Of a stretch of DNA of 64,000 nucleotides, positions 25,698 to 46,354 are shown piece after piece (within the stretch, counting starts at the first letter, position 1; every line of letters begins with the position of its first letter). The notes under the pieces are model-generated. The model saw nothing but the letters and a program-made list of their open reading frames with translations. It ran no database searches and was not told the DNA's origin. The position numbers and the translations under genes were made by a program. The stretch comes from Meyerozyma guilliermondii (lineage: Eukaryota), in contig CP128815.1 in assembly GCA_051546255.1 (NCBI GenBank), positions 1,922,001 through 1,986,000 of the forward strand, given 5' to 3'.

Positions 25698-26054
25698 GTT
25701 GATTTTATGCTAGGATGAATATATTAGGGAAAAAGACCAAACACACGGTTTCGTGATGTGCAATTTGGTATAATAAGCTCACTACTGAATAGTTTTGCCT
25801 CTGTCTAAAGATCAGGGATTATTAATTGGTCTCGCCCAAAATGAGTTGGTGGGGAATTAATCAAAAATGCTTGAAAGTAGTATGGCGTCTACCAGTTGCA
25901 AACACAGCAGTCGATCAGAATCCACAAAAAACCAACCACCGCTCTAAATGGTAGGTATTGGTTAGTTATTCTTACCCAAGGTGCTCCGTCGACTTTTTCT
26001 GGCGGTCGTGCGCGGGCCCATCGATTTCGCAGACAAGGCCCGAAAAATTCACAA

Positions 26055-26642
26055 ATGAACAAAACCATGCTTCGCAGAACCGTGGCTGGTGCCATACGAG
26101 CACCGTCGTTGGTAGCCCGTTCATTTACAAATTCTGCTATAACGATGGCGGAGAATCCACTTCCTTCGTCACCAGAAATGAAAAGTGAAAGTGCGTGGAC
26201 CAAGGACACCACGAGCAACAGCAGTTCGGTTGTAAGTCAGGTTGTGGGATTAGCACGCACGATCCAAGAAAGCTCTCAACCCCCAGTACACATAGATACC
26301 ATGTTCACCAAGCGGTTTGGCGTGGGCGAAACTTATGACCCATTTGACTTTTCCAACGATAAATTAGACATCCAAAAAAGAGAAAGAAGATCAGCACGAG
26401 CATCAGGTACATCCAGAGACCCATTTGAAAACGCCGGTATTGATCCTTTGGACGTGTATATGATGCCAGAGTTGTTGTCGCGGTTTTTAAGCTCCACAGG
26501 ACAGATATTACCACGAGAAATCACCGGTTGCAACAACAAAAACCAGAGAAAGCTCTCAATGGCCATCAAGCGAGCACGGGCATGCGGATTACTTTCTTCC
26601 GTCCACAGACATGCGCGGTTCTTGCCCACGCGAAACATGTAA
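26055..26642 (+). CDS. RSM18: Mitochondrial ribosomal protein bS18m
   Basis: Presequence-like MNKTMLRRT (alternative ATG 26067); YDPFDFS, LSRFLSSTGQILPREITG, NQRKLSMAIKRARACGLL S18 signature. Confidence 0.9.
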   Translation: MNKTMLRRTVAGAIRAPSLVARSFTNSAITMAENPLPSSPEMKSESAWTKDTTSNSSSVVSQVVGLARTIQESSQPPVHIDTMFTKRFGVGETYDPFDFSNDKLDIQKRERRSARASGTSRDPFENAGIDPLDVYMMPELLSRFLSSTGQILPREITGCNNKNQRKLSMAIKRARACGLLSSVHRHARFLPTRNM

Positions 26643-26786
26643 ATAGATACTACGACTACTATACTACGGTTACTACGGCTACACTACAGCCTGTCCTGCT
26701 AAATTTGCATCTTGTCGCTCCTGCACACGCCTTTGTGTAACTTGTTCTATCCAATGGCGCAAGCTCGCCAATTAACCCTGTTCACT

Positions 26787-27029
26787 ATGTTGACTCAAAT
26801 TATTGCCAGACGTGCTGCTGTAACCTCCGTTAGGTCGTTTTCTTCTGCCAGAGTGCTTGCCGCCGAAGGTAGCCAGAATGATGCTTTTTCCGACAGAGAA
26901 AAGGCCCAGGAAAACATGTACATCAAGAAGCAAGAAAAGGAACAATTGAGAAAGTTGAGAGAAAAGTTGCAGAAACAAAAGGAATCCATCGACAAGTTGG
27001 AGGAGGAAATCAACAAGATTAAGAATTAA
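26787..27029 (+). CDS. INH1: Mitochondrial F1Fo ATPase inhibitor (Inh1/Stf1 family)
   Basis: 80 aa; presequence then AEGS, DAFSDREKAQENMYIKKQEKEQLRKLREKL coiled coil. Confidence 0.9.
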   Translation: MLTQIIARRAAVTSVRSFSSARVLAAEGSQNDAFSDREKAQENMYIKKQEKEQLRKLREKLQKQKESIDKLEEEINKIKN

Positions 27030-27123
27030 GTAGCTAATCATAGTTTTTACTGAGTGTAGGAACGACTTGAGTAGTGGGTGGTGATGTGGGTTTGTGCAAT
27101 TGGAGAGGACGCAATTAAGCTAC

Positions 27124-27270
27124 ATTGAAGCTGTCGAGTTCATTGAGTGCCTTGAGTGCAATTGAGCTAAATTGAGCTAAACTGGATGCTATTGAGTGAA
27201 TTGAGCTAGATTGGATGCCATTGAGTGAATTGAGTGTATTGATTCACCTGAGTGCAATAGAGTGAACTGC
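27124..27270. repeat. Degenerate ATTGAG-core minisatellite with 29-bp higher-order duplication
   Basis: ATTGAG/ATTGGA cores every 9-10 bp; 27171-27199 and 27200-27228 differ at 3 positions. Confidence 0.75.
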
Positions 27271-28033
27271 AGGCATCTGTTACTCAACCGATACAGTATT
27301 GCCAAACTCACTCCCTGAACTCTGTCATGTATTCACCGAAGTCCAAGCGCCAAGCTTCATCCATTGACATCGCTTAACTCACCCTGAAGTCGAAGCTTAT
27401 TATTTCGCGAAGAACTTTAAATCAGAATCGCCCCGCAAAATTCAAGCTCGTCTTAGCACTTTTCCAATTTGCAACCAGACACACAGCTAAGTCTAGTTAA
27501 TGACAAGTTACTCTACATTTCAATTACTTGAAAACAGAGTGGCTGTTGTTTGGATATGAATGATTTGAAAAGCCTCATAAATCTTAAATTTTGCAGACGT
27601 TGCAAATTATCTGATTAGTACGTGGAGCTCCACTGATTCGCTTATGCTTTTTGCAATTTGTTTCGGAATAATTTTCGAAGTTGACAAGTGATACCAGAAG
27701 TAATATACTGGTGAAGGTATCTACTACTGTTATTTTTTTCAGTTTAGCCCAAATCAACAAGAATGCATTGAGAATTAGGAGAGGATTTGCTCTACGATGA
27801 TGATTTAGAGTTTATTCACAAAATCAAAAATTGATTTCATGAAATGTCCCACCAAAATGGTCTCCCATCGCTTTCCTTACTGATGACAAATTGAGCTTCT
27901 TGCTTAGTATTCTTATTTGCTCATATAGTGACGTGCGGCGCACGGCTCACCTGCTTCAGATCCATGTCAGATTCTATAAATACTGTTTGAAAGAACAAAT
28001 ATGGTGAACCTGCTGACAGCTGTACTGGTATAG

Positions 28034-28260
28034 ATGCCTGCAGTGTTTGTGTCTGCTTCCAAGGGTATAATTTCTCATGACCTTGTGAAACAGCTACTAG
28101 AGCAAGATTGCAAAATTCTAGGATTAGTTGGATGTGATGAAGAAGGTGAGGCATTGGTGCGCGAGTTAAGGTCCTCTAGCTTTGTTTATGAAGTAGTTGG
28201 GTCTCTTCATAAGAACAAATTATGTACTGATGTTCAACTACACGATAAGTTGAGATTGTC
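28034..28260 (+). pseudogene. Degenerate N-terminal fragment of a Gre2-like NADPH reductase (extended SDR), in frame with the MFS gene
   Basis: VFVSASKGIISHDLVKQLLEQDCKILGLV..DEEGEAL....SSSFVYEVV aligns by eye with Gre2 [38 protein letters not shown]....KFSMEVV. Confidence 0.7.
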
Positions 28261-29836
28261 AGAGGATAGCTCGGAAAAGTACTCCATATTACCGATCATT
28301 ATGAACCTTGACAGTGCAGATTATTCTTCGTCTTTGTCCACTAGTATAAGTAGTACGAGCCATCGTGAGCAAAATGCTAAAAACCTTGAGAAAGAGTACC
28401 CATTTCCAGTTGAAGATCGTTCTATTTACGCAGTTTCTTACAATGGCCAAGATGATCCTGCTCATCCGTTCAACTGGTCCTCCAAGAAGAAAATTCTGGT
28501 TTGTTTAACAGCAGGATTAACAGCATTTTCAATCTCTTTGGGATCTGCCATGTTTGCCGCAGGAAGCCTTCAAGTTCAAGAAGAATATCTTGTGGGAGAT
28601 ACTGTGGGTACACTAGGTACATCGTTGTTTGTATTTGGGTTTGCTTCCGGTCCTGTCATTTGGGGTCCTTTATCGGAATTGTTCGGTCGAAGGATGGCCA
28701 TGATCCCATCGTGCTTCGGTTACGTTTTATTCACGTTTGCCGTGGCCTCAGCCCAAGATATCCAGACCATCATGATCTGCCGCTTTTTTGCTGGCTTTAT
28801 AGGTGGAGCAGCCTTTGTAATTGGTCCAGCCGTGTTGGCGGATATGTTTCGTGCCGAAAAAAGAGGAGAAGCGATGTCACTTTTTGGCATTGTTGTATTT
28901 GGTGGACCCATGGTTGCACCTATTTTGGGTGCTTTTATAACCAAGAACCCCCATTTAGGCTGGAGATGGACTTCGTATATTACAGGATTAGTGGCTGCTC
29001 TTGCCAATATCTTGGTAATACTCTTTTTGGACGAAACCCATCATCCAATAGTCTTAGTCCAGAAGGCAGTTGAATTAAGAAACAGAACAGGTAATTGGGC
29101 TATTTTTGCTCCCCATGAAGAGTTTAACTTGACACTAAAGGAAATTGCAGAGAAAAACATTACAAGACCAATTTACATGTTGTTCACCGAACCAATTTTG
29201 TTCTTGGTGACATTATACAATGCTTTCATTTATGGTATATTGTATCTCATGTTGACAGCAATGCCGTTGATATTTGTTGGAAAGTATCATTTTAGAGCAG
29301 GTGTTGGAGAACTACCTTATGTGTCGATGCTTTTAGGTGTGATTGTTGGTGCAATTATTACACTTTTCTTTGAAAAACGATTCAAAAGAATTATGAGAGC
29401 AAACAACAACATTGCAATTCCAGAGGAAAGACTTCCGCCAATGATGGTTGGTTCATTCTTTTTCGCTATAGGCCTATTTTGGCTAGGTTGGACTGGTGAC
29501 TACCCTGACAAAATTCATTGGATGGTCCCCACAGTCGGTTCATCGTTTATTGGCTGTGGTTTAATATTGATCTTCCTACCTTGTTTGAACTATATAATTG
29601 ACTGTTACTTGGTGTTTGCGGCTTCGGCTTTGGCAGGAAACACTTTGCTTCGTTCAGCATTTGGAGCAGCGTTTCCACTTTTTGCTCGTCCTATGTTTGA
29701 GAATATGCACATAAAATGGGCAAGCACTTTGCTAGGTGCGTTTGCCGTATTGATGATTCCGGTCCCTTTCGGGTTCTACAAATACGGTAAGAAAGCAAGA
29801 CAAAAATCCAAGTTTACATTTGACCAAGTGATCTGA
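28034..29836 (+). CDS. MFS DHA1 drug/polyamine:H+ antiporter (FLU1/TPO1-like) with Gre2-like N-terminal extension
   Basis: DDPAHPFNW, GPLSELFGRR, CRFFAGF, WRW, ETHHP, PEERL motifs; alternative internal start at 28301 (MNLDSAD). Confidence 0.92.
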   Translation: MPAVFVSASKGIISHDLVKQLLEQDCKILGLVGCDEEGEALVRELRSSSFVYEVVGSLHKNKLCTDVQLHDKLRLSEDSSEKYSILPIIMNLDSADYSSSLSTSISSTSHREQNAKNLEKEYPFPVEDRSIYAVSYNGQDDPAHPFNWSSKKKILVCLTAGLTAFSISLGSAMFAAGSLQVQEEYLVGDTVGTLGTSLFVFGFASGPVIWGPLSELFGRRMAMIPSCFGYVLFTFAVASAQDIQTIMICRFFAGFIGGAAFVIGPAVLADMFRAEKRGEAMSLFGIVVFGGPMVAPILGAFITKNPHLGWRWTSYITGLVAALANILVILFLDETHHPIVLVQKAVELRNRTGNWAIFAPHEEFNLTLKEIAEKNITRPIYMLFTEPILFLVTLYNAFIYGILYLMLTAMPLIFVGKYHFRAGVGELPYVSMLLGVIVGAIITLFFEKRFKRIMRANNNIAIPEERLPPMMVGSFFFAIGLFWLGWTGDYPDKIHWMVPTVGSSFIGCGLILIFLPCLNYIIDCYLVFAASALAGNTLLRSAFGAAFPLFARPMFENMHIKWASTLLGAFAVLMIPVPFGFYKYGKKARQKSKFTFDQVI

Positions 29837-30286
29837 GCTGCTTTACCAGTATAGCTATATGGCGATGGGCTCTAACACTATTTATAGATGGTTGTTTTAT
29901 GGCATTATGAATATATATTTATCACAGAATCTCAATCAGAAGAAGTAAACGGCTCCCTAAATATCTACCAAAAGTAAGAATTTTAGGAGTTTTAGTAATA
30001 AAGACAAGAATATTTGCAGCAATTAGAGTTAGTACACTCAGTGCTGATTAGATTTGCAATTTTTCAATTTTGTGAATTTCTTGAAAAGGTCAAATTACCT
30101 ATTTCAGAATGCTACAATGTTCTTCATCTTTTCAGTCCCTCTTTTTTATCTTATCCTTTTATCTCTTTTTCGTTATCTTCTCTCTTGCTACCGATCTTAA
30201 TATACTTTCCGCATTCGGTAATCACCTGCATCGAAGCCGTTGTGCGGCAATACCGCCATCTCATCTGGTTATTCTGGCAAAACGAT

Positions 30287-31537
30287 ATGGGGTTCAAGGC
30301 CAGTTTTAATGCGTTCATTTACTCCATAAACACACCTCCGCCATCCCCAGATCCTGCGAAAACCTCAAAGCCTCGAAAGTGCCATACAAAAACCACTACA
30401 AGCGATTCTTCTCAACGCCAACATGGCCAAATATTTGAAAGTATTCCTTCACAAACCACACAGCGATCAGAAAGACAAGCTGCTCGGGATAGAAACAGAT
30501 CTGGGCCTGGTGCAGAAGCTGAGTTTGTGGAACTTCAACATTCTAGTCAACAAGTGGTGAGTTTTGAAGACCCAACTTCTGGCCCAAGACGACCAGACCG
30601 GGAATCTCGGAGACACCGTTCACGAGCATACGGAAACCGTCCAAGAGCCGGTGAAAGAGCTAGCGGACGACCTACGAGAGAAGCTAGTGAAACTCTGGAA
30701 CACCATAGAAACCTGGAGAGGCGAGAGGCTCGCCGAGAAAGGGCACGTCGAAGAACTGGAGAAAGACTACAGGAACGAGACGGCAGAGAAAGAACTCGAG
30801 AAAGAGACAGCAGAGAGAGGGCTCAGGAAAGAGGCAATGACAGAACTCGGGAAAGAAACAACCGAGACCGAAGTAGTCGAGACAGACCTCGCGAGAGGAC
30901 CGCTCGTCGTGAGGAAAGAACGGTCCCCAGACGCAACCGAGACCACACTGGTCGCAGAAGAAACCAGATCAACCCTGCCTTTCCTCCTCCAATTAATATC
31001 CAGGAAGCCACCAGTATAAGAATTCGACGCCCAGTCCCGCTGATGCCACTGCCTCCACAAGAACCTGACCAGTCGCCCATTTCATCACTTTCAACACCAT
31101 CTACGCTTCCGGAAGATTCCTCCGACGAGGTCCCCGAATACGACGTGAACGATATCGAGATCCCTCCGTATCGGGCTTCACTTCACAAGTACCTCGACTT
31201 GATGTCGTTTGACCCTCGGTTTGTCCCCTGTCTACGGATCAACCGGTCGCTTGTACGCAACCACGATAAGCTCCAGGAATCCATCCATGAATTCAAACGG
31301 TTCAACAAACTTCCTAATTCGGTAGATCTCTGGAAGATCAACCATGTAGACGATGCTCACTTTGACGATATTCTTCCCGACCTCATTCCCTATCCACTGC
31401 CACCAAGACAACGCCATGAAACGAACCACGAAAGCGAGCTACAGCCTCATGAATTACAAGCAATCAATGATTATGACTATGCCCTATTCTTGGAGCAACA
31501 AGAACAAGCAATGGCCCACCAATACGTGCGAGCGTGA
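30287..31537 (+). CDS. Hypothetical Arg/Glu-rich low-complexity protein
   Basis: 416 aa from ATG 30287 (MGFKAS); long RE/RD-rich tract, Pro-rich segment, VPEY/IPPY motifs. Confidence 0.7.
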   Translation: MGFKASFNAFIYSINTPPPSPDPAKTSKPRKCHTKTTTSDSSQRQHGQIFESIPSQTTQRSERQAARDRNRSGPGAEAEFVELQHSSQQVVSFEDPTSGPRRPDRESRRHRSRAYGNRPRAGERASGRPTREASETLEHHRNLERREARRERARRRTGERLQERDGRERTRERDSRERAQERGNDRTRERNNRDRSSRDRPRERTARREERTVPRRNRDHTGRRRNQINPAFPPPINIQEATSIRIRRPVPLMPLPPQEPDQSPISSLSTPSTLPEDSSDEVPEYDVNDIEIPPYRASLHKYLDLMSFDPRFVPCLRINRSLVRNHDKLQESIHEFKRFNKLPNSVDLWKINHVDDAHFDDILPDLIPYPLPPRQRHETNHESELQPHELQAINDYDYALFLEQQEQAMAHQYVRA

Positions 31538-36405: not shown

Positions 36406-38331
36406 CTACTCGTATCGTACATATAACGCATCTATAAAGTGGGGGTGTTTAATACCCGGGGTTCGGGCCATTCGAAATCCTTCAACAGCTTCGCGCACCG
36501 TCCACCCAAGCCGCTCGATGAGATAGGAACAAATCAAGAAACCAGTCCTGTTGAATCCATAATGACAATGAACCGCTATTAAGGGGTGAGGAACGTCGCA
36601 ATTATTAAGAATATCGTCCACAAGCTGTATAAACCTGCGCACAGACCCCTGGTCCGGTACCACCTTGGAGACGGTTGCACATTTATAGTACATGATGTGT
36701 TTGAAATTTTTGGGGCTGTAGGGAGGAATATCAGCCGATATGTCGATTATGGCAGCCAAGGTGCCTTGTATAGACGGATGTTTCTTATCCGAATAAAAGA
36801 GGTTCTCGAGAATTTGCGGTGAGTGAGTGGAGTCTCCTTCACGTAGAGTCTTCATGCCTAAGAGAGGTGCCATATCTTTCCCGCCATTGCGGGTAATGTT
36901 TAAAGACAACGGGTTCAAGTCCAACCATTTCTGCTCGTTTTTCAACCCCCACTTATCTCCAGAAATGTTAGCCTTGACTTGTAGAACCCACGCAGGGGAA
37001 AGGTGAAGTCTTTCCGGAAACTTGGCTTCGATGTGGTTCAATATCACTCCACTGATATACTCGGGCTTCACCAAGAGAAGCGAATGACCGGCATTGGGGA
37101 TCTCAATGGCCCTTGAAACTTGACGACCAAATGTTTTAGTGAGGTAGTAATCTGTCTCGTGCACCACTTTGCATGCGGTTACTTGGTCTTCTGAACCACC
37201 CACGAAAAGGGTCTTTTCATAGGTGTTTTTGTCTGCCAGACGATCGTTGAAGTTTCTTATTGCGGCAAGAAGATCAGTATAGGAGGCACGTTGAAACCCG
37301 TCAATATACTTGAGAATGATATCTGTGTCAATATCTAAATTCCACCGAAGTTGACGCAAGCTATTATAAATATTAGTATTGTTCTTTGCAAGCTGGCGCA
37401 ATACGCTTTTACTCTCCAAGCCCTCGAGTCGATCCCACACTCTAAAGCAATTGAACAACCATGAAGAGCGTGCAAAAACTTTCATAAACGACAAGAGATC
37501 GGATTTTTGAGGCACGGTATCGTCGTGAAATGGAGGTGGTGAGAGCAATATTAATCCTTCCACTTTGTGCGCAGGTAGTTTCTTAGCCAACTTTACGGCC
37601 AAGTGGGTGCCCATAGAGTGGCCCACCAATACCACCTTCTTGCCTTGAGGTATCTGCTGGTTAACATATTCATACAAGATGGACACTAATTTGTTTGTGG
37701 AAAAATCGCTCGTGGCCATCAGCAGTATCGAGTTAGAGACTTTTGCCTTTTGTTCTTCGGACAAGATGGTGATTGACTTGCCCTGGTTTTCGAAAGAGCG
37801 ACGAGAGTTCCCAAATCCTGGGAGATCCACCGATAATATTTCCAGGCACTGCGAAAGAAGACCCATGAGTGGCTCAAACTGAGACATTTGGCCGCCCAAG
37901 CCATGAACAAAGAAAAACACCGGCGACTCCTGTAAATCCTGCGGCACGTGCAACGCTTCTGCCTGGTGTTTATTGGTTTCGTTCCGCATAAAATTGACTA
38001 ATGGATGAGGTATGTGCATCGAAACCAACGACACCGACTCCACCGATAAATCTTGATGACGAAGGTCGATATCCACCACACTGGAGTACTTGGCCACTAG
38101 GGAGCAGTCACTGGGCTCAGATTTGAGCACAAAGTCTTCAAAAGTGTTGTGGTACCGACATAATTGCAACTTGACGAACTCCCATGACTTGGTGAGGGCA
38201 GTGCTAGTTTGCTGTTTCTGGGCATCAGAAGCATTTTTCAAGACATCAAAGGAATTGAGCATATGCCCGTCGCTACGCGAGGTCAGAACTGCCGTTACAG
38301 CCAACAACTCCTGCTCGTCGCCGTCATTCAT
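36406..38331 (-). CDS. Alpha/beta-hydrolase fused to a cysteine phosphatase (RNA 5'-triphosphatase/DUSP11-like) domain
   Basis: HGLGG, DLPGFG, GHSMG nucleophile elbow, AGHS; C-terminal VHCHYGFNRTGFLIC P-loop at 36541-36570 and RTPGIKH..FIDALY. Confidence 0.88.
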   Translation of the reverse strand: MNDGDEQELLAVTAVLTSRSDGHMLNSFDVLKNASDAQKQQTSTALTKSWEFVKLQLCRYHNTFEDFVLKSEPSDCSLVAKYSSVVDIDLRHQDLSVESVSLVSMHIPHPLVNFMRNETNKHQAEALHVPQDLQESPVFFFVHGLGGQMSQFEPLMGLLSQCLEILSVDLPGFGNSRRSFENQGKSITILSEEQKAKVSNSILLMATSDFSTNKLVSILYEYVNQQIPQGKKVVLVGHSMGTHLAVKLAKKLPAHKVEGLILLSPPPFHDDTVPQKSDLLSFMKVFARSSWLFNCFRVWDRLEGLESKSVLRQLAKNNTNIYNSLRQLRWNLDIDTDIILKYIDGFQRASYTDLLAAIRNFNDRLADKNTYEKTLFVGGSEDQVTACKVVHETDYYLTKTFGRQVSRAIEIPNAGHSLLLVKPEYISGVILNHIEAKFPERLHLSPAWVLQVKANISGDKWGLKNEQKWLDLNPLSLNITRNGGKDMAPLLGMKTLREGDSTHSPQILENLFYSDKKHPSIQGTLAAIIDISADIPPYSPKNFKHIMYYKCATVSKVVPDQGSVRRFIQLVDDILNNCDVPHPLIAVHCHYGFNRTGFLICSYLIERLGWTVREAVEGFRMARTPGIKHPHFIDALYVRYE

Positions 38332-44282: not shown

Positions 44283-46354
44283 ATGTTGTCAGCTCGTCCA
44301 GTATTGCGTTCTGCTGCGAGATCAGCTGCCTTAGCTGCCAGAACTTTGCGTGTGGTAAGTACTTTTTCCAGGTGAAGTGTCACCATGATTTTGGATGTAG
44401 AATCATAAGGAGGCTAAATTGGCCGCTCATATTGGTTCACAATAAAGAGGAGCATGCCAAGTATGACATTGAAGCTTTTCAGCGGCGAAATAGCTACGTT
44501 TTTGCCGATTTGATGTGTTTGTTGGTGGTTTTGCTGAATGGCGAAACTGCCGAAATCGATGAAATCGTAGTGCTTCTCGGCCAATTCAACCTCAAGAGTG
44601 TCCAAGGCAGCTATGGTAGTGCCAGTCTACCGTTTCATTGCTCTCAATTGGAGTATTCACCGGAATCCGTTGACTTTGTGATGGCGCCTTCTCATTGGAT
44701 GAGAGCCGATTCCACGACATCTCAATTTCCGGGGGTTATAACTGGTCCCATATCGACCTGCTACTTCGTAATCACATACTAACTACAGGCCCGTCCAGCT
44801 CAAGTTGCTGCTGTTCGTTTCGCCTCCGCCAAGGCTGCCCCTACTGAGGTCACCTCCATCATCGAAGAGAGAATTAGAGGTGTTTCCGATGAGGCCAACT
44901 TGAACGAAACCGGTAGAGTTTTGTCTGTTGGTGATGGTATTGCCCGTGTTTTCGGATTGAACAACTGTCAAGCCGAAGAATTGGTTGAGTTCAGTTCCGG
45001 TGTTAAGGGTATGGCTTTGAACTTGGAAGCCGGTCAAGTCGGTATTGTGTTGTTCGGTTCCGATGCCTTGGTTAAGGAAGGTGAAACCGTCAAGAGAACC
45101 GGTAAGATTGTCGACGTTCCAACTGGTCCAGAATTGTTGGGCCGTGTTGTTGACGGTTTGGGTAACCCAATCGATGGTAAGGGACCATTGAATGCTTCTT
45201 CTTCCTCTAGAGCTCAAGTTAAGGCTCCAGGTATCTTGCCAAGAAGATCCGTGTACGAACCTATGCAAACTGGTTTGAAATCGGTCGATGCTTTGGTGCC
45301 AGTTGGTAGAGGTCAAAGAGAATTGATCATTGGTGATCGTCAAACTGGTAAGACCGCTGTCGCTTTGGACACCATCTTGAACCAAAAGAAGTGGAACGAT
45401 GGTTCTGATGAGAAGAAGAAGTTGTACTGTGTGTACGTTGCCGTTGGTCAAAAGAGATCCACCGTTGCTCAATTGGTGCAAACTTTGGAAAAGGCTGATG
45501 CTCTTAAGTACTCCATCATTGTTGCCGCTACTGCTTCTGAAGCTGCTCCTTTGCAATACTTGGCTCCTTTTACTGGTGCTGCCATTGGTGAATGGTTCAG
45601 AGACAACGGTAGACACTCGTTGATCATCTACGATGATTTGTCCAAGCAAGCTGTTGCTTACCGTCAATTGTCGTTGTTGTTGAGACGTCCACCTGGTCGT
45701 GAGGCTTACCCTGGTGATGTTTTCTACTTGCACTCTCGTTTGTTAGAGAGAGCTGCTAAGATGTCTGATACCTTGGGTGGTGGTTCCATGACCGCTTTGC
45801 CAATCATTGAGACTCAAGGTGGTGATGTGTCAGCTTACATTCCAACTAACGTCATTTCCATTACTGATGGTCAAATTTTCTTGGAGGCTGAATTGTTCTA
45901 CAAGGGTATCAGACCTGCCATTAACGTTGGTTTGTCGGTTTCCCGTGTCGGATCTGCTGCTCAAGTTAAGGCCATGAAGCAAGTTGCTGGTTCTTTGAAA
46001 TTGTTCTTGGCTCAATACAGAGAAGTCGCTGCTTTCGCCCAATTCGGTTCCGATTTGGATGCTTCTACCAAGCAAACCTTGGCTAGAGGTGAGAGATTGA
46101 CCCAACTTTTGAAGCAAAAGCAATACTCTCCTTTGTCTGCTGAGGAGCAAGTTCCTGTCATTTACGCTGGTGTCAACGGTTTCTTAGATAACATCGCCGT
46201 CGACAGAGTCGGAGAGTTCGAGGAGGCTTACATCTCTAGCTTGAAGTCCAACCAACCTGAGATCTTGGAAGCCATCCGTGAAAAGGGTGAGTTGTCTAAG
46301 GACGACTTGGAGAAGTTGAAGTCTGCTACTGAGTCTTTCGTTGCTTCTTTCTAA
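44283..46354 (+). CDS. ATP1: Mitochondrial ATP synthase F1 alpha subunit; join(44283..44354,44789..46354)
   Basis: Exon 1 [24 protein letters not shown] splices in frame to [29 protein letters not shown] Walker [13 protein letters not shown]. Confidence 0.97.
44355..44788 (+). other. Spliceosomal intron of ATP1 (434 nt, phase 0)
   Basis: GTAAGT donor at 44355, TACTAAC branch at 44777-44783, CAG acceptor ending 44788. Confidence 0.95.

Follow-up and report, generated by a model that had tools for sequence, protein, structure and literature searches.

The genome of Meyerozyma guilliermondii, an opportunistic pathogen, encodes a putative drug transporter whose first codons resemble the start of an unrelated enzyme. 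This raises the question of whether the gene is a working chimera or a pump preceded by a relic. The gene lies in a 64,000-nucleotide (nt) stretch of contig CP128815.1 (assembly GCA_051546255.1, positions 1,922,001 to 1,986,000), called the window below; coordinates are window positions unless a contig is named. It is a single open reading frame (ORF) of 600 amino acids (aa) at 28034–29836 on the forward strand, read with translation table 12 (the alternative yeast code). The data are likely explained by an old Meyerozyma chimera, in which a Gre2 head and a duplicated FLU1 pump are translated together from the Gre2 ATG and the promoter may have been captured as well. The gene is a real, conserved DHA1 pump chimera that has apparently gone undescribed. 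Its parts are as follows:

28034–28219, forward strand: Gre2/SDR-derived Rossmann start (aa 1–62), beta-alpha-beta-alpha-beta, with altered NADPH-binding residues and apparent purifying selection
28220–28300, forward strand: aa 63–89, probably more Gre2-derived sequence with about 10 residues deleted; a weak match, in which EKYSILP aligns with EKDLLLP
28301–28387, forward strand: Ser/Thr-rich linker (aa 90–118), which holds the junction and is the most variable part; its M90 is not conserved
28388–29836, forward strand: FLU1-type DHA1 transporter body (aa 119–600 and stop), with MFS_1 at aa 162–536 and 72% identity to the genome's FLU1 copy (L014)

The reductase origin of the N-terminus, which a first-pass annotation had proposed from an alignment by eye, is borne out by PDB, own-genome, and paralog-profile searches. 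Querying PDB with aa 1–89 (phmmer) recovered the NADPH-dependent methylglyoxal reductase GRE2 (7ymb; E 8e-6, aa 3–58), and 17/20 among the matches listed were Gre2-type or ketoreductase entries. Within the same genome, 13 of the 14 matches to aa 1–62 were other Gre2-like frames of 336–381 aa, the best being L002 (E 3e-10), which is identical to the record PGUG_03246. A hidden Markov model (HMM) of 11 Gre2 paralogs scored four fusion N-termini at 41–45 bits and 13 other DHA1 N-termini at −0.1 or below; applied to FLU1-like homologs of other yeasts, it placed none of 76 above −0.5 bits, with the four fusions at 38–42. Identity of aa 1–62 to ten aligned Gre2 paralogs is 31–39%, with the start register and beta-alpha pattern of Gre2. 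The annotation had also proposed HMMER comparisons with Gre2 paralogs and with Epimerase (PF01370); the paralogs match, and Pfam scans of aa 1–89 and 1–60 returned no PF01370 or SDR match, just XdhC_C at E 0.18. On these matches, the first 62 residues are derived from a Gre2-type reductase. The donor candidates disagree: L002 is the closest protein, L005 the sole match at the DNA level, and the tree does not resolve them.

The Gre2-like stretch had been put at about 75 codons. Its Gre2 likeness holds, with a firm match over about 62 codons here (71–74 in the ortholog of the Meyerozyma sp. JA9 type) and a weak one beyond. In a multiple alignment the Gre2 register runs on to aa 87–89 across a gap of about 10 residues. 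This extension was equaled by 8/500 shuffles for two orthologs, and by 73/500 and 290/500 for the other two; pairwise BLASTP of aa 63–89 against Gre2 was not significant. No remnant of the rest of GRE2 was recovered in the six frames of 26000–31000 or in downstream DNA.

What is retained has lost the hallmarks of the enzyme. The cofactor motif GxxGxxA of Gre2 reads A8-S-K-G11-I-I-S14 (AxxGxxS) in the head and TxxGxxS in other fusions, and SVR-S..K after strand 2 has become LVG-C..E (R to G, K to E), at basic residues that presumably bind the 2'-phosphate of NADPH. The catalytic S...YxxxK and a complete Epimerase domain are missing from the ORF. Both the decay of the cofactor motif and the absence of the catalytic remainder had been noted from the letters alone, and were confirmed by alignment and by the six-frame search of 26000–31000. 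Because the NADPH motif is lost, the basic residues are replaced, and no catalytic half lies nearby, the head, as predicted from these residues, cannot be an enzyme.

The remainder of the protein is of FLU1 type. The MFS_1 (PF07690) match scores 130 bits against a cut-off of 33.4, and about 12 long helices appear in low-confidence models; from homology, the product would be a drug or polyamine:H+ antiporter. The body is 72% identical to the retained FLU1 copy (PGUG_04286) and 65% to Candida lusitaniae CLUG_05825. Similarity to FLU1 begins at aa 119, and aa 90–118 could be assigned to neither parent. Two motifs of the acidic FLU1 tail, PxMG (75/76 FLU1-like homologs) and [SA]RxxSx[RKL] (SRxxSR; 56/76), occur in none of four fusions; they are a trait of the FLU1 clade and not required for DHA1 membership. 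Because these motifs are missing and FLU1 similarity starts only at aa 119, the Gre2 piece, by alignment, is a replacement of about 100 residues of the acidic tail and not an addition before a whole pump, as the first-pass annotation had pictured it. The tail having been replaced, M90 is therefore not the ancestral start. The second in-frame ATG is present at 28301 (M90), where it was reported; its description as the usual transporter start fails, since M90 is absent from the 605-aa ortholog type and FLU1 similarity begins downstream of it.

A search with aa 1–130 returned two 90% clusters with 16 members. Three fusion types are represented, of 600 aa (nine members), 605 aa (two), and 601 aa (four, one named Meyerozyma sp. 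JA9), and the sixteenth member is a 107-aa C-terminal piece. Alignment with related species had been suggested at the outset; in these records the Gre2 head is open in 15/16, that is, in all 15 full-length proteins, with several in-frame length changes among types. Public names for the fusion proteins are FLU1, TPO1, or DHA1 only. Four records (P0005, P0097, P0109, P0149) are labeled Naganishia cerealis, a basidiomycete, yet are 99–100% identical to Meyerozyma proteins, which points to contamination or a mislabeled public assembly.

When the pump body served as query, 78 clusters were listed, none of them between 88% and 72% identity, and no headless sister cluster of the fusion appeared among the 8000 candidates scored. 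A search of 50% cluster representatives gave two short Gre2-like pieces only; the fusion was not among its results, and any fusion grouped with FLU1 would thus escape this search. A metagenome scan for ortholog DNA gave only the ordinary FLU1 locus L027. In a tree of 19 rows (18 proteins and L014, with L015, L016, and L019 left out), support is 100/100 for a fusion clade and 88/92 for its sister relation to Meyerozyma FLU1; the fusion stem measures 0.43 versus 0.11, about four times longer. Both parent families are intact in this genome, as FLU1 L014 and 13 Gre2-like frames. On the evidence of the tree, the fusion body is a fast-evolved FLU1 duplicate. The JA9 FLU1 record (P0100) is annotated as 949 aa, fused with a downstream Obg-like ATPase; these are two separate genes at L014 here, and the record is probably a gene-calling artefact.

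Whether the head is translated can be approached through the orthologs. The 605-aa type (P0012/P0013; 7/16 records were checked) has Met only at positions 1 and 178, and Met178 lies inside the first transmembrane segment (TM1). Between types, aa 1–62 are identical at 58/62 and 46/62 positions (74–94%), the linker (aa 90–118) at 17/29 and 14/29, and the pump body at 91% and 88.5%; for comparison, the first 72 residues of FLU1 are identical at 67/72 to the closest non-identical cluster representative and at 57/72 to the JA9 record. A neutral simulation calibrated on the linker (3000 runs) gave expectations of about 37/62 and 34/62; 0/3000 runs reached 58/62 (d = 0.25), and 0.2% reached 46/62 (d = 0.3). 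Compared with L002, the head is 54/79/34% identical at codon positions 1/2/3, against 68/79/41% for intact paralog pairs, with synonymous and nonsynonymous proportions of difference (pS, pN) of 0.73 and 0.37. Free decay is unlikely because third positions are saturated and yet second codon positions show no additional loss. The comparison shows what appears to be purifying selection on aa 1–62, a constraint at the level of the protein. The head had been called decayed, which is apt for its NADPH motif and inapt for the whole, which stays in frame in 15/16 related records and under constraint. Because one ortholog type lacks any other Met before TM1 and aa 1–62 are constrained, translation very likely begins at the Gre2 ATG (28034), the reading that the first-pass annotation had drawn from the open frame.

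The first-pass annotation had overlooked another in-frame ATG immediately upstream:

28001–28033, forward strand: in-frame upstream ORF (uORF) of 10 codons, read directly from the sequence, whose TAG abuts ATG 28034

A short intron within 28004–28033 was considered and dismissed, as 30 nt is too short. The uORF bears on the alternative that the head is an untranslated relic, a GRE2 pseudogene fragment in the 5' leader of a pump that starts at M90, with the frame open by luck. The uORF ATG has A at −3 and the main ATG a weak T; M90 is present in the 600- and 601-aa types; and the cofactor residues are lost. All of this would fit a relic, as would ENA cluster P0161 (two members, from the shorter-protein search), which follows aa 1–41 and ends at 44 aa and is either a broken allele or an assembly error. 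We nevertheless consider a relic highly unlikely: the 605-aa type has no further Met before position 178, aa 1–62 are far more conserved than the linker that follows M90, conservation at second codon positions equals that seen for intact GRE2 genes although third positions are saturated, and keeping the ATG and an 89-codon frame by chance has a probability of 0.06–0.09 per comparison at the calibrated divergence, before indels.

Several points weigh against the translated chimera. P0161 is one. The predicted start at 28034 draws on protein records and sequence constraint, and database proteins are gene calls, biased to the longest frame. The uORF, with its better start context, could divert ribosomes if transcribed, and M90, found in 2/3 types, would yield a 511-aa pump of the length of paralogs L015 and L017. 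Additionally, the sister relation to FLU1 is an unstarred node (88/92), and structure models have low confidence (mean pLDDT, the predicted local distance difference test score, 32–36). Points of this kind that touch the promoter are given with it, below.

Upstream of the gene, two elements resemble those of GRE2 promoters:

27929–27945, forward strand: promoter module TGACGTG + CGG-N4-CGG, 105 nt before the ATG, an ATF/CREB-like word with a zinc-cluster-type direct repeat; putative function
27975–27980, forward strand: TATA box TATAAA at −59 (59 nt to the first base of ATG 28034)

The TATAAA is where the first-pass annotation had placed it, ahead of the ATG, at a counted distance of 59 nt and not the approximately 55 bp given. 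A TATA-like word lies at −32 to −54 in 8/10 scanned GRE2 paralogs, and FLU1 has no sense-strand TATAAA within 1 kb. The module has the same order and strand upstream of the twin GRE2 paralogs L005/L006: TGACGTG followed by CGG-N4-CGG within 0–4 nt occurs at three sites in 10.7 Mb, before this gene and these two, and the control gave 0. A looser form has eight genome sites versus five for a reversed control; its other five sites lie inside long ORFs (three), inside a doubtful ORF (one), and before another gene (one). For this form, the chance that a sense-strand site falls no more than 200 nt from any of the 12 distinct GRE2 starts is about 6e-4, before post-hoc correction. The pattern was defined post hoc, from sight of both promoters, and carries modest weight.

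These features need not mean that the promoter was captured. The fusion protein could be real and its promoter since replaced or rebuilt, with stress sites gained independently as in many DHA1 pumps, a view that opposes just the promoter clause of the chimera, so that confidence in the two overlaps. The upstream DNA, aligned to ten GRE2 and two DHA1 promoters, has no alignable homology to GRE2 promoters (highest z among 12 tests 2.7; −0.4 for L005), and L005, which shares the module, is not the best protein match, which is L002. No CGGAGWTAR (Mrr1) site with up to two mismatches and CGG fixed occurs in 27030–28033, where the same criterion gives four each for L002 and FLU1 L014; TTASTAA (TTA[CG]TAA), the canonical Yap1/Cap1 site, is likewise absent upstream of the fusion gene. 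The loose-form background is about five per genome. The Mrr1 consensus CGGAGWTAR is from a preprint in which FLU1 is already Mrr1-bound in C. lusitaniae (bioRxiv 10.1101/2025.05.04.652153), and methylglyoxal reductases and MDR1 are co-regulated by Mrr1 and Cap1 in that species (bioRxiv 10.1101/2020.05.18.101840). The borrowed Mrr1 regulation proposed in the first-pass annotation is thus not upheld, given no such site upstream, four at L002, and a FLU1 that is itself Mrr1-bound in C. lusitaniae. Capture in the wider sense has modest support from the shared module and co-induction by patulin (below). A promoter rebuilt after the fusion would have to account for a tight module confined to the fusion gene and two GRE2 copies, the low chance of even the looser form near GRE2 starts, a GRE2-like TATA spacing that FLU1 lacks, and an induction much above that of FLU1. 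We consider such a rebuilt promoter quite possible, at somewhat under even chances, and give about even chances to the proximal GRE2 promoter having come along with the head and provided GRE2-derived stress induction.

Other features of the GRE2 promoters were observed in passing. Four Mrr1-motif-like CGGAG words cluster at −108 to −190 of L002 (on C3), the paralog closest to the head in protein. TTA[CG]TAA occurs before L003, L005/L006, L007, and L012, and not before L002, L004, or L008–L011; a primer match identifies L012 as a patulin-induced GRP2, and L003 is probably another, judging by position. L005 (C8:24146–27316) and L006 (C8:207314–210484), 183 kb apart, encode identical proteins with the same upstream motif positions and are a recent duplication. 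Nearer the fusion gene, a degenerate tandem array at 27142–27266, 3' of INH1 and 770–890 nt before the fusion gene, holds about 13 copies of a 9–10-nt unit (consensus ATTGAGTGA, 63% matches), adjoins a TTACTCA word, and is unique by genome DNA search; it is possibly either a neutral minisatellite or a series of weak AP-1-like half sites.

Stress induction is common among DHA1 pumps in any case, and co-induction with GRE2 genes would be no proof of capture. Published expression data point to a difference in induction between this gene and FLU1. M. guilliermondii is a biocontrol and patulin-degrading yeast, and RNA sequencing under patulin reports a log2 fold change (log2FC) of 3.56 (about 12-fold) for PGUG_01124, named "TPO1," and 1.01 (about 2-fold) for FLU1 (PMC10219284, Table 2). 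In the same study, four GRP2/GRE2 genes have log2FC 1.03–6.70 and MDR1 10.1, with 54 genes at log2 of at least 2; the isolate is a different one, and the table lists selected genes only. PGUG_01124 lies midway between anchors at C1:1,884,410 and C1:2,035,277. ORF counts from these anchors to the fusion gene are 42–46 and 43–51 steps, with 47 and 47 expected, and the fusion gene is the only DHA1 gene in the interval. By position, PGUG_01124 is very probably this fusion gene; the locus tag was found in one paper only, in the literature searched.

AlphaFold models (mean pLDDT 32 and 36) give beta-alpha-beta-alpha(-beta) over aa 3–54 at low confidence; head pLDDT reached 55–67 solely with an alignment seeded by Gre2 N-termini, which is circular. 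The equally circular head model from that alignment matched Gre2-type structures in Foldseek with a root-mean-square deviation of 2.4 Å over 55 columns (E at least 0.018), and ESM Atlas returned SDR fragments at 0.75–0.78, which serve as leads only. Neither Cys26 nor Cys34 has a counterpart in any of the 10 aligned Gre2 paralogs, and both are present in 15/15 full-length fusions; the Cys34 position is, we assume, in the former NADPH 2'-phosphate loop of Gre2 structures. These cysteines and the kept fold pattern are what would be expected had the Rossmann remnant gained a thiol-sensing role, or one in docking intact Gre2 to the pump. However, with three lineages so closely related, shared ancestry cannot be told apart from selection on the cysteines, and a half Rossmann fold on its own is probably unstable; we regard such a role as unlikely. 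A bolder proposal, to which we accord a similarly small chance, is that one rearrangement gave the pump both GRE2 promoter and head, the latter remodeled into a regulatory module, with its new conserved cysteines in the former NADPH loop, tuning the pump to electrophiles such as patulin or methylglyoxal. If true, no other DHA1 antiporter would have been known to carry a sensor domain derived from an enzyme.

In the reading that we prefer, the chimera goes back to a duplication of FLU1, whose parent copy is retained and has the fusion clade as its sister. The 3' part of one copy, starting shortly ahead of the YPxP segment that precedes TM1, would then have been fused in frame with the 5' end of a GRE2-type gene; the homology is direct, and in this putative recombination some 60–90 Gre2 codons would have replaced about 100 residues of acidic FLU1 tail. 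A search of genome DNA with common words skipped, made for a repeat or long terminal repeat as recombination substrate, found that both gene flanks match only themselves. The product would be a drug:H+ antiporter of about 600 aa, translated from the Gre2 ATG as its orthologs suggest. Its cytosolic head would be a non-enzymatic Rossmann remnant, which selection maintains as a structured N-terminal tail. This tail would provide the start codon and, standing in for the one lost from FLU1, would probably influence how the pump is folded, sorted, or turned over. The captured proximal promoter may place the pump in the electrophile-stress response of the GRE2 genes, though not via present-day Mrr1 sites.

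The fusion can be set beside several known systems. It shares the MFS_1 body (72% and 65% identity) with the FLU1/TPO1-type DHA1 antiporters PGUG_04286 and CLUG_05825 and is sister to FLU1, but has a Gre2 head instead of the acidic tail with PxMG/SRxxSR, a fourfold longer stem, and much stronger reported patulin induction. With the Gre2/Grp2/Mgd1 methylglyoxal reductases (extended SDR) it shares start register, beta-alpha pattern, and 31–39% identity over aa 1–62, but it keeps the first fifth to quarter only, with a changed motif and no catalytic half. SSU1 rearrangements in wine yeasts reportedly leave the coding sequence intact. They likewise put an efflux pump under a foreign promoter (PMC7336578, PMC8631656), but are recent events, whereas this fusion captured coding sequence too, used a duplicate, and predates several lineages. 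The MALT chimeras of Saccharomyces eubayanus, transporters produced by paralog recombination (PMC6448821, PMC6448828), are also new transporter genes made by in-frame joining, but of two homologous transporters; here the partners have unrelated folds (an SDR enzyme and an MFS pump). No description of a Gre2-FLU1 fusion was found in the literature searched, which included few subscription papers. Phylogenetic studies of DHA1 transporters in Candida species include C. guilliermondii, and the duplicate may be listed there.

The fusion gene is flanked by INH1 on one side and, on the other, by an ORF of no assigned family, beyond which lie the homocitrate synthase gene and an SPX-EXS gene. Directly downstream, at 30287–31537, is a 416-aa ORF that has no Pfam match and contains a repeat block rich in Arg and Glu, with tandem units of 27 and 39 nt at 30751–30856. 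A 641-aa protein at 36406–38331 (reverse strand) joins an alpha/beta hydrolase to a dual-specificity phosphatase domain, which we take to be a known fungal architecture. The ATP synthase alpha ORF at 45011–46354 starts inside its N-terminal domain (profile position 39), and a 5' exon or frame break is therefore to be expected upstream.

The locus offers a clean, datable case of new-gene birth by fusion of unrelated genes in an intron-poor yeast, and the pump family concerned is a key one for tolerance of antifungals and xenobiotics. Annotation does not reveal such chimeras, because the records name FLU1, TPO1, or DHA1 only and Pfam misses the head. Because the genome still holds both parents and published data point to different induction of parent and chimera, questions about the diversification of efflux pumps by captured regulation, and about the roles of DHA1 N-terminal tails, become testable.

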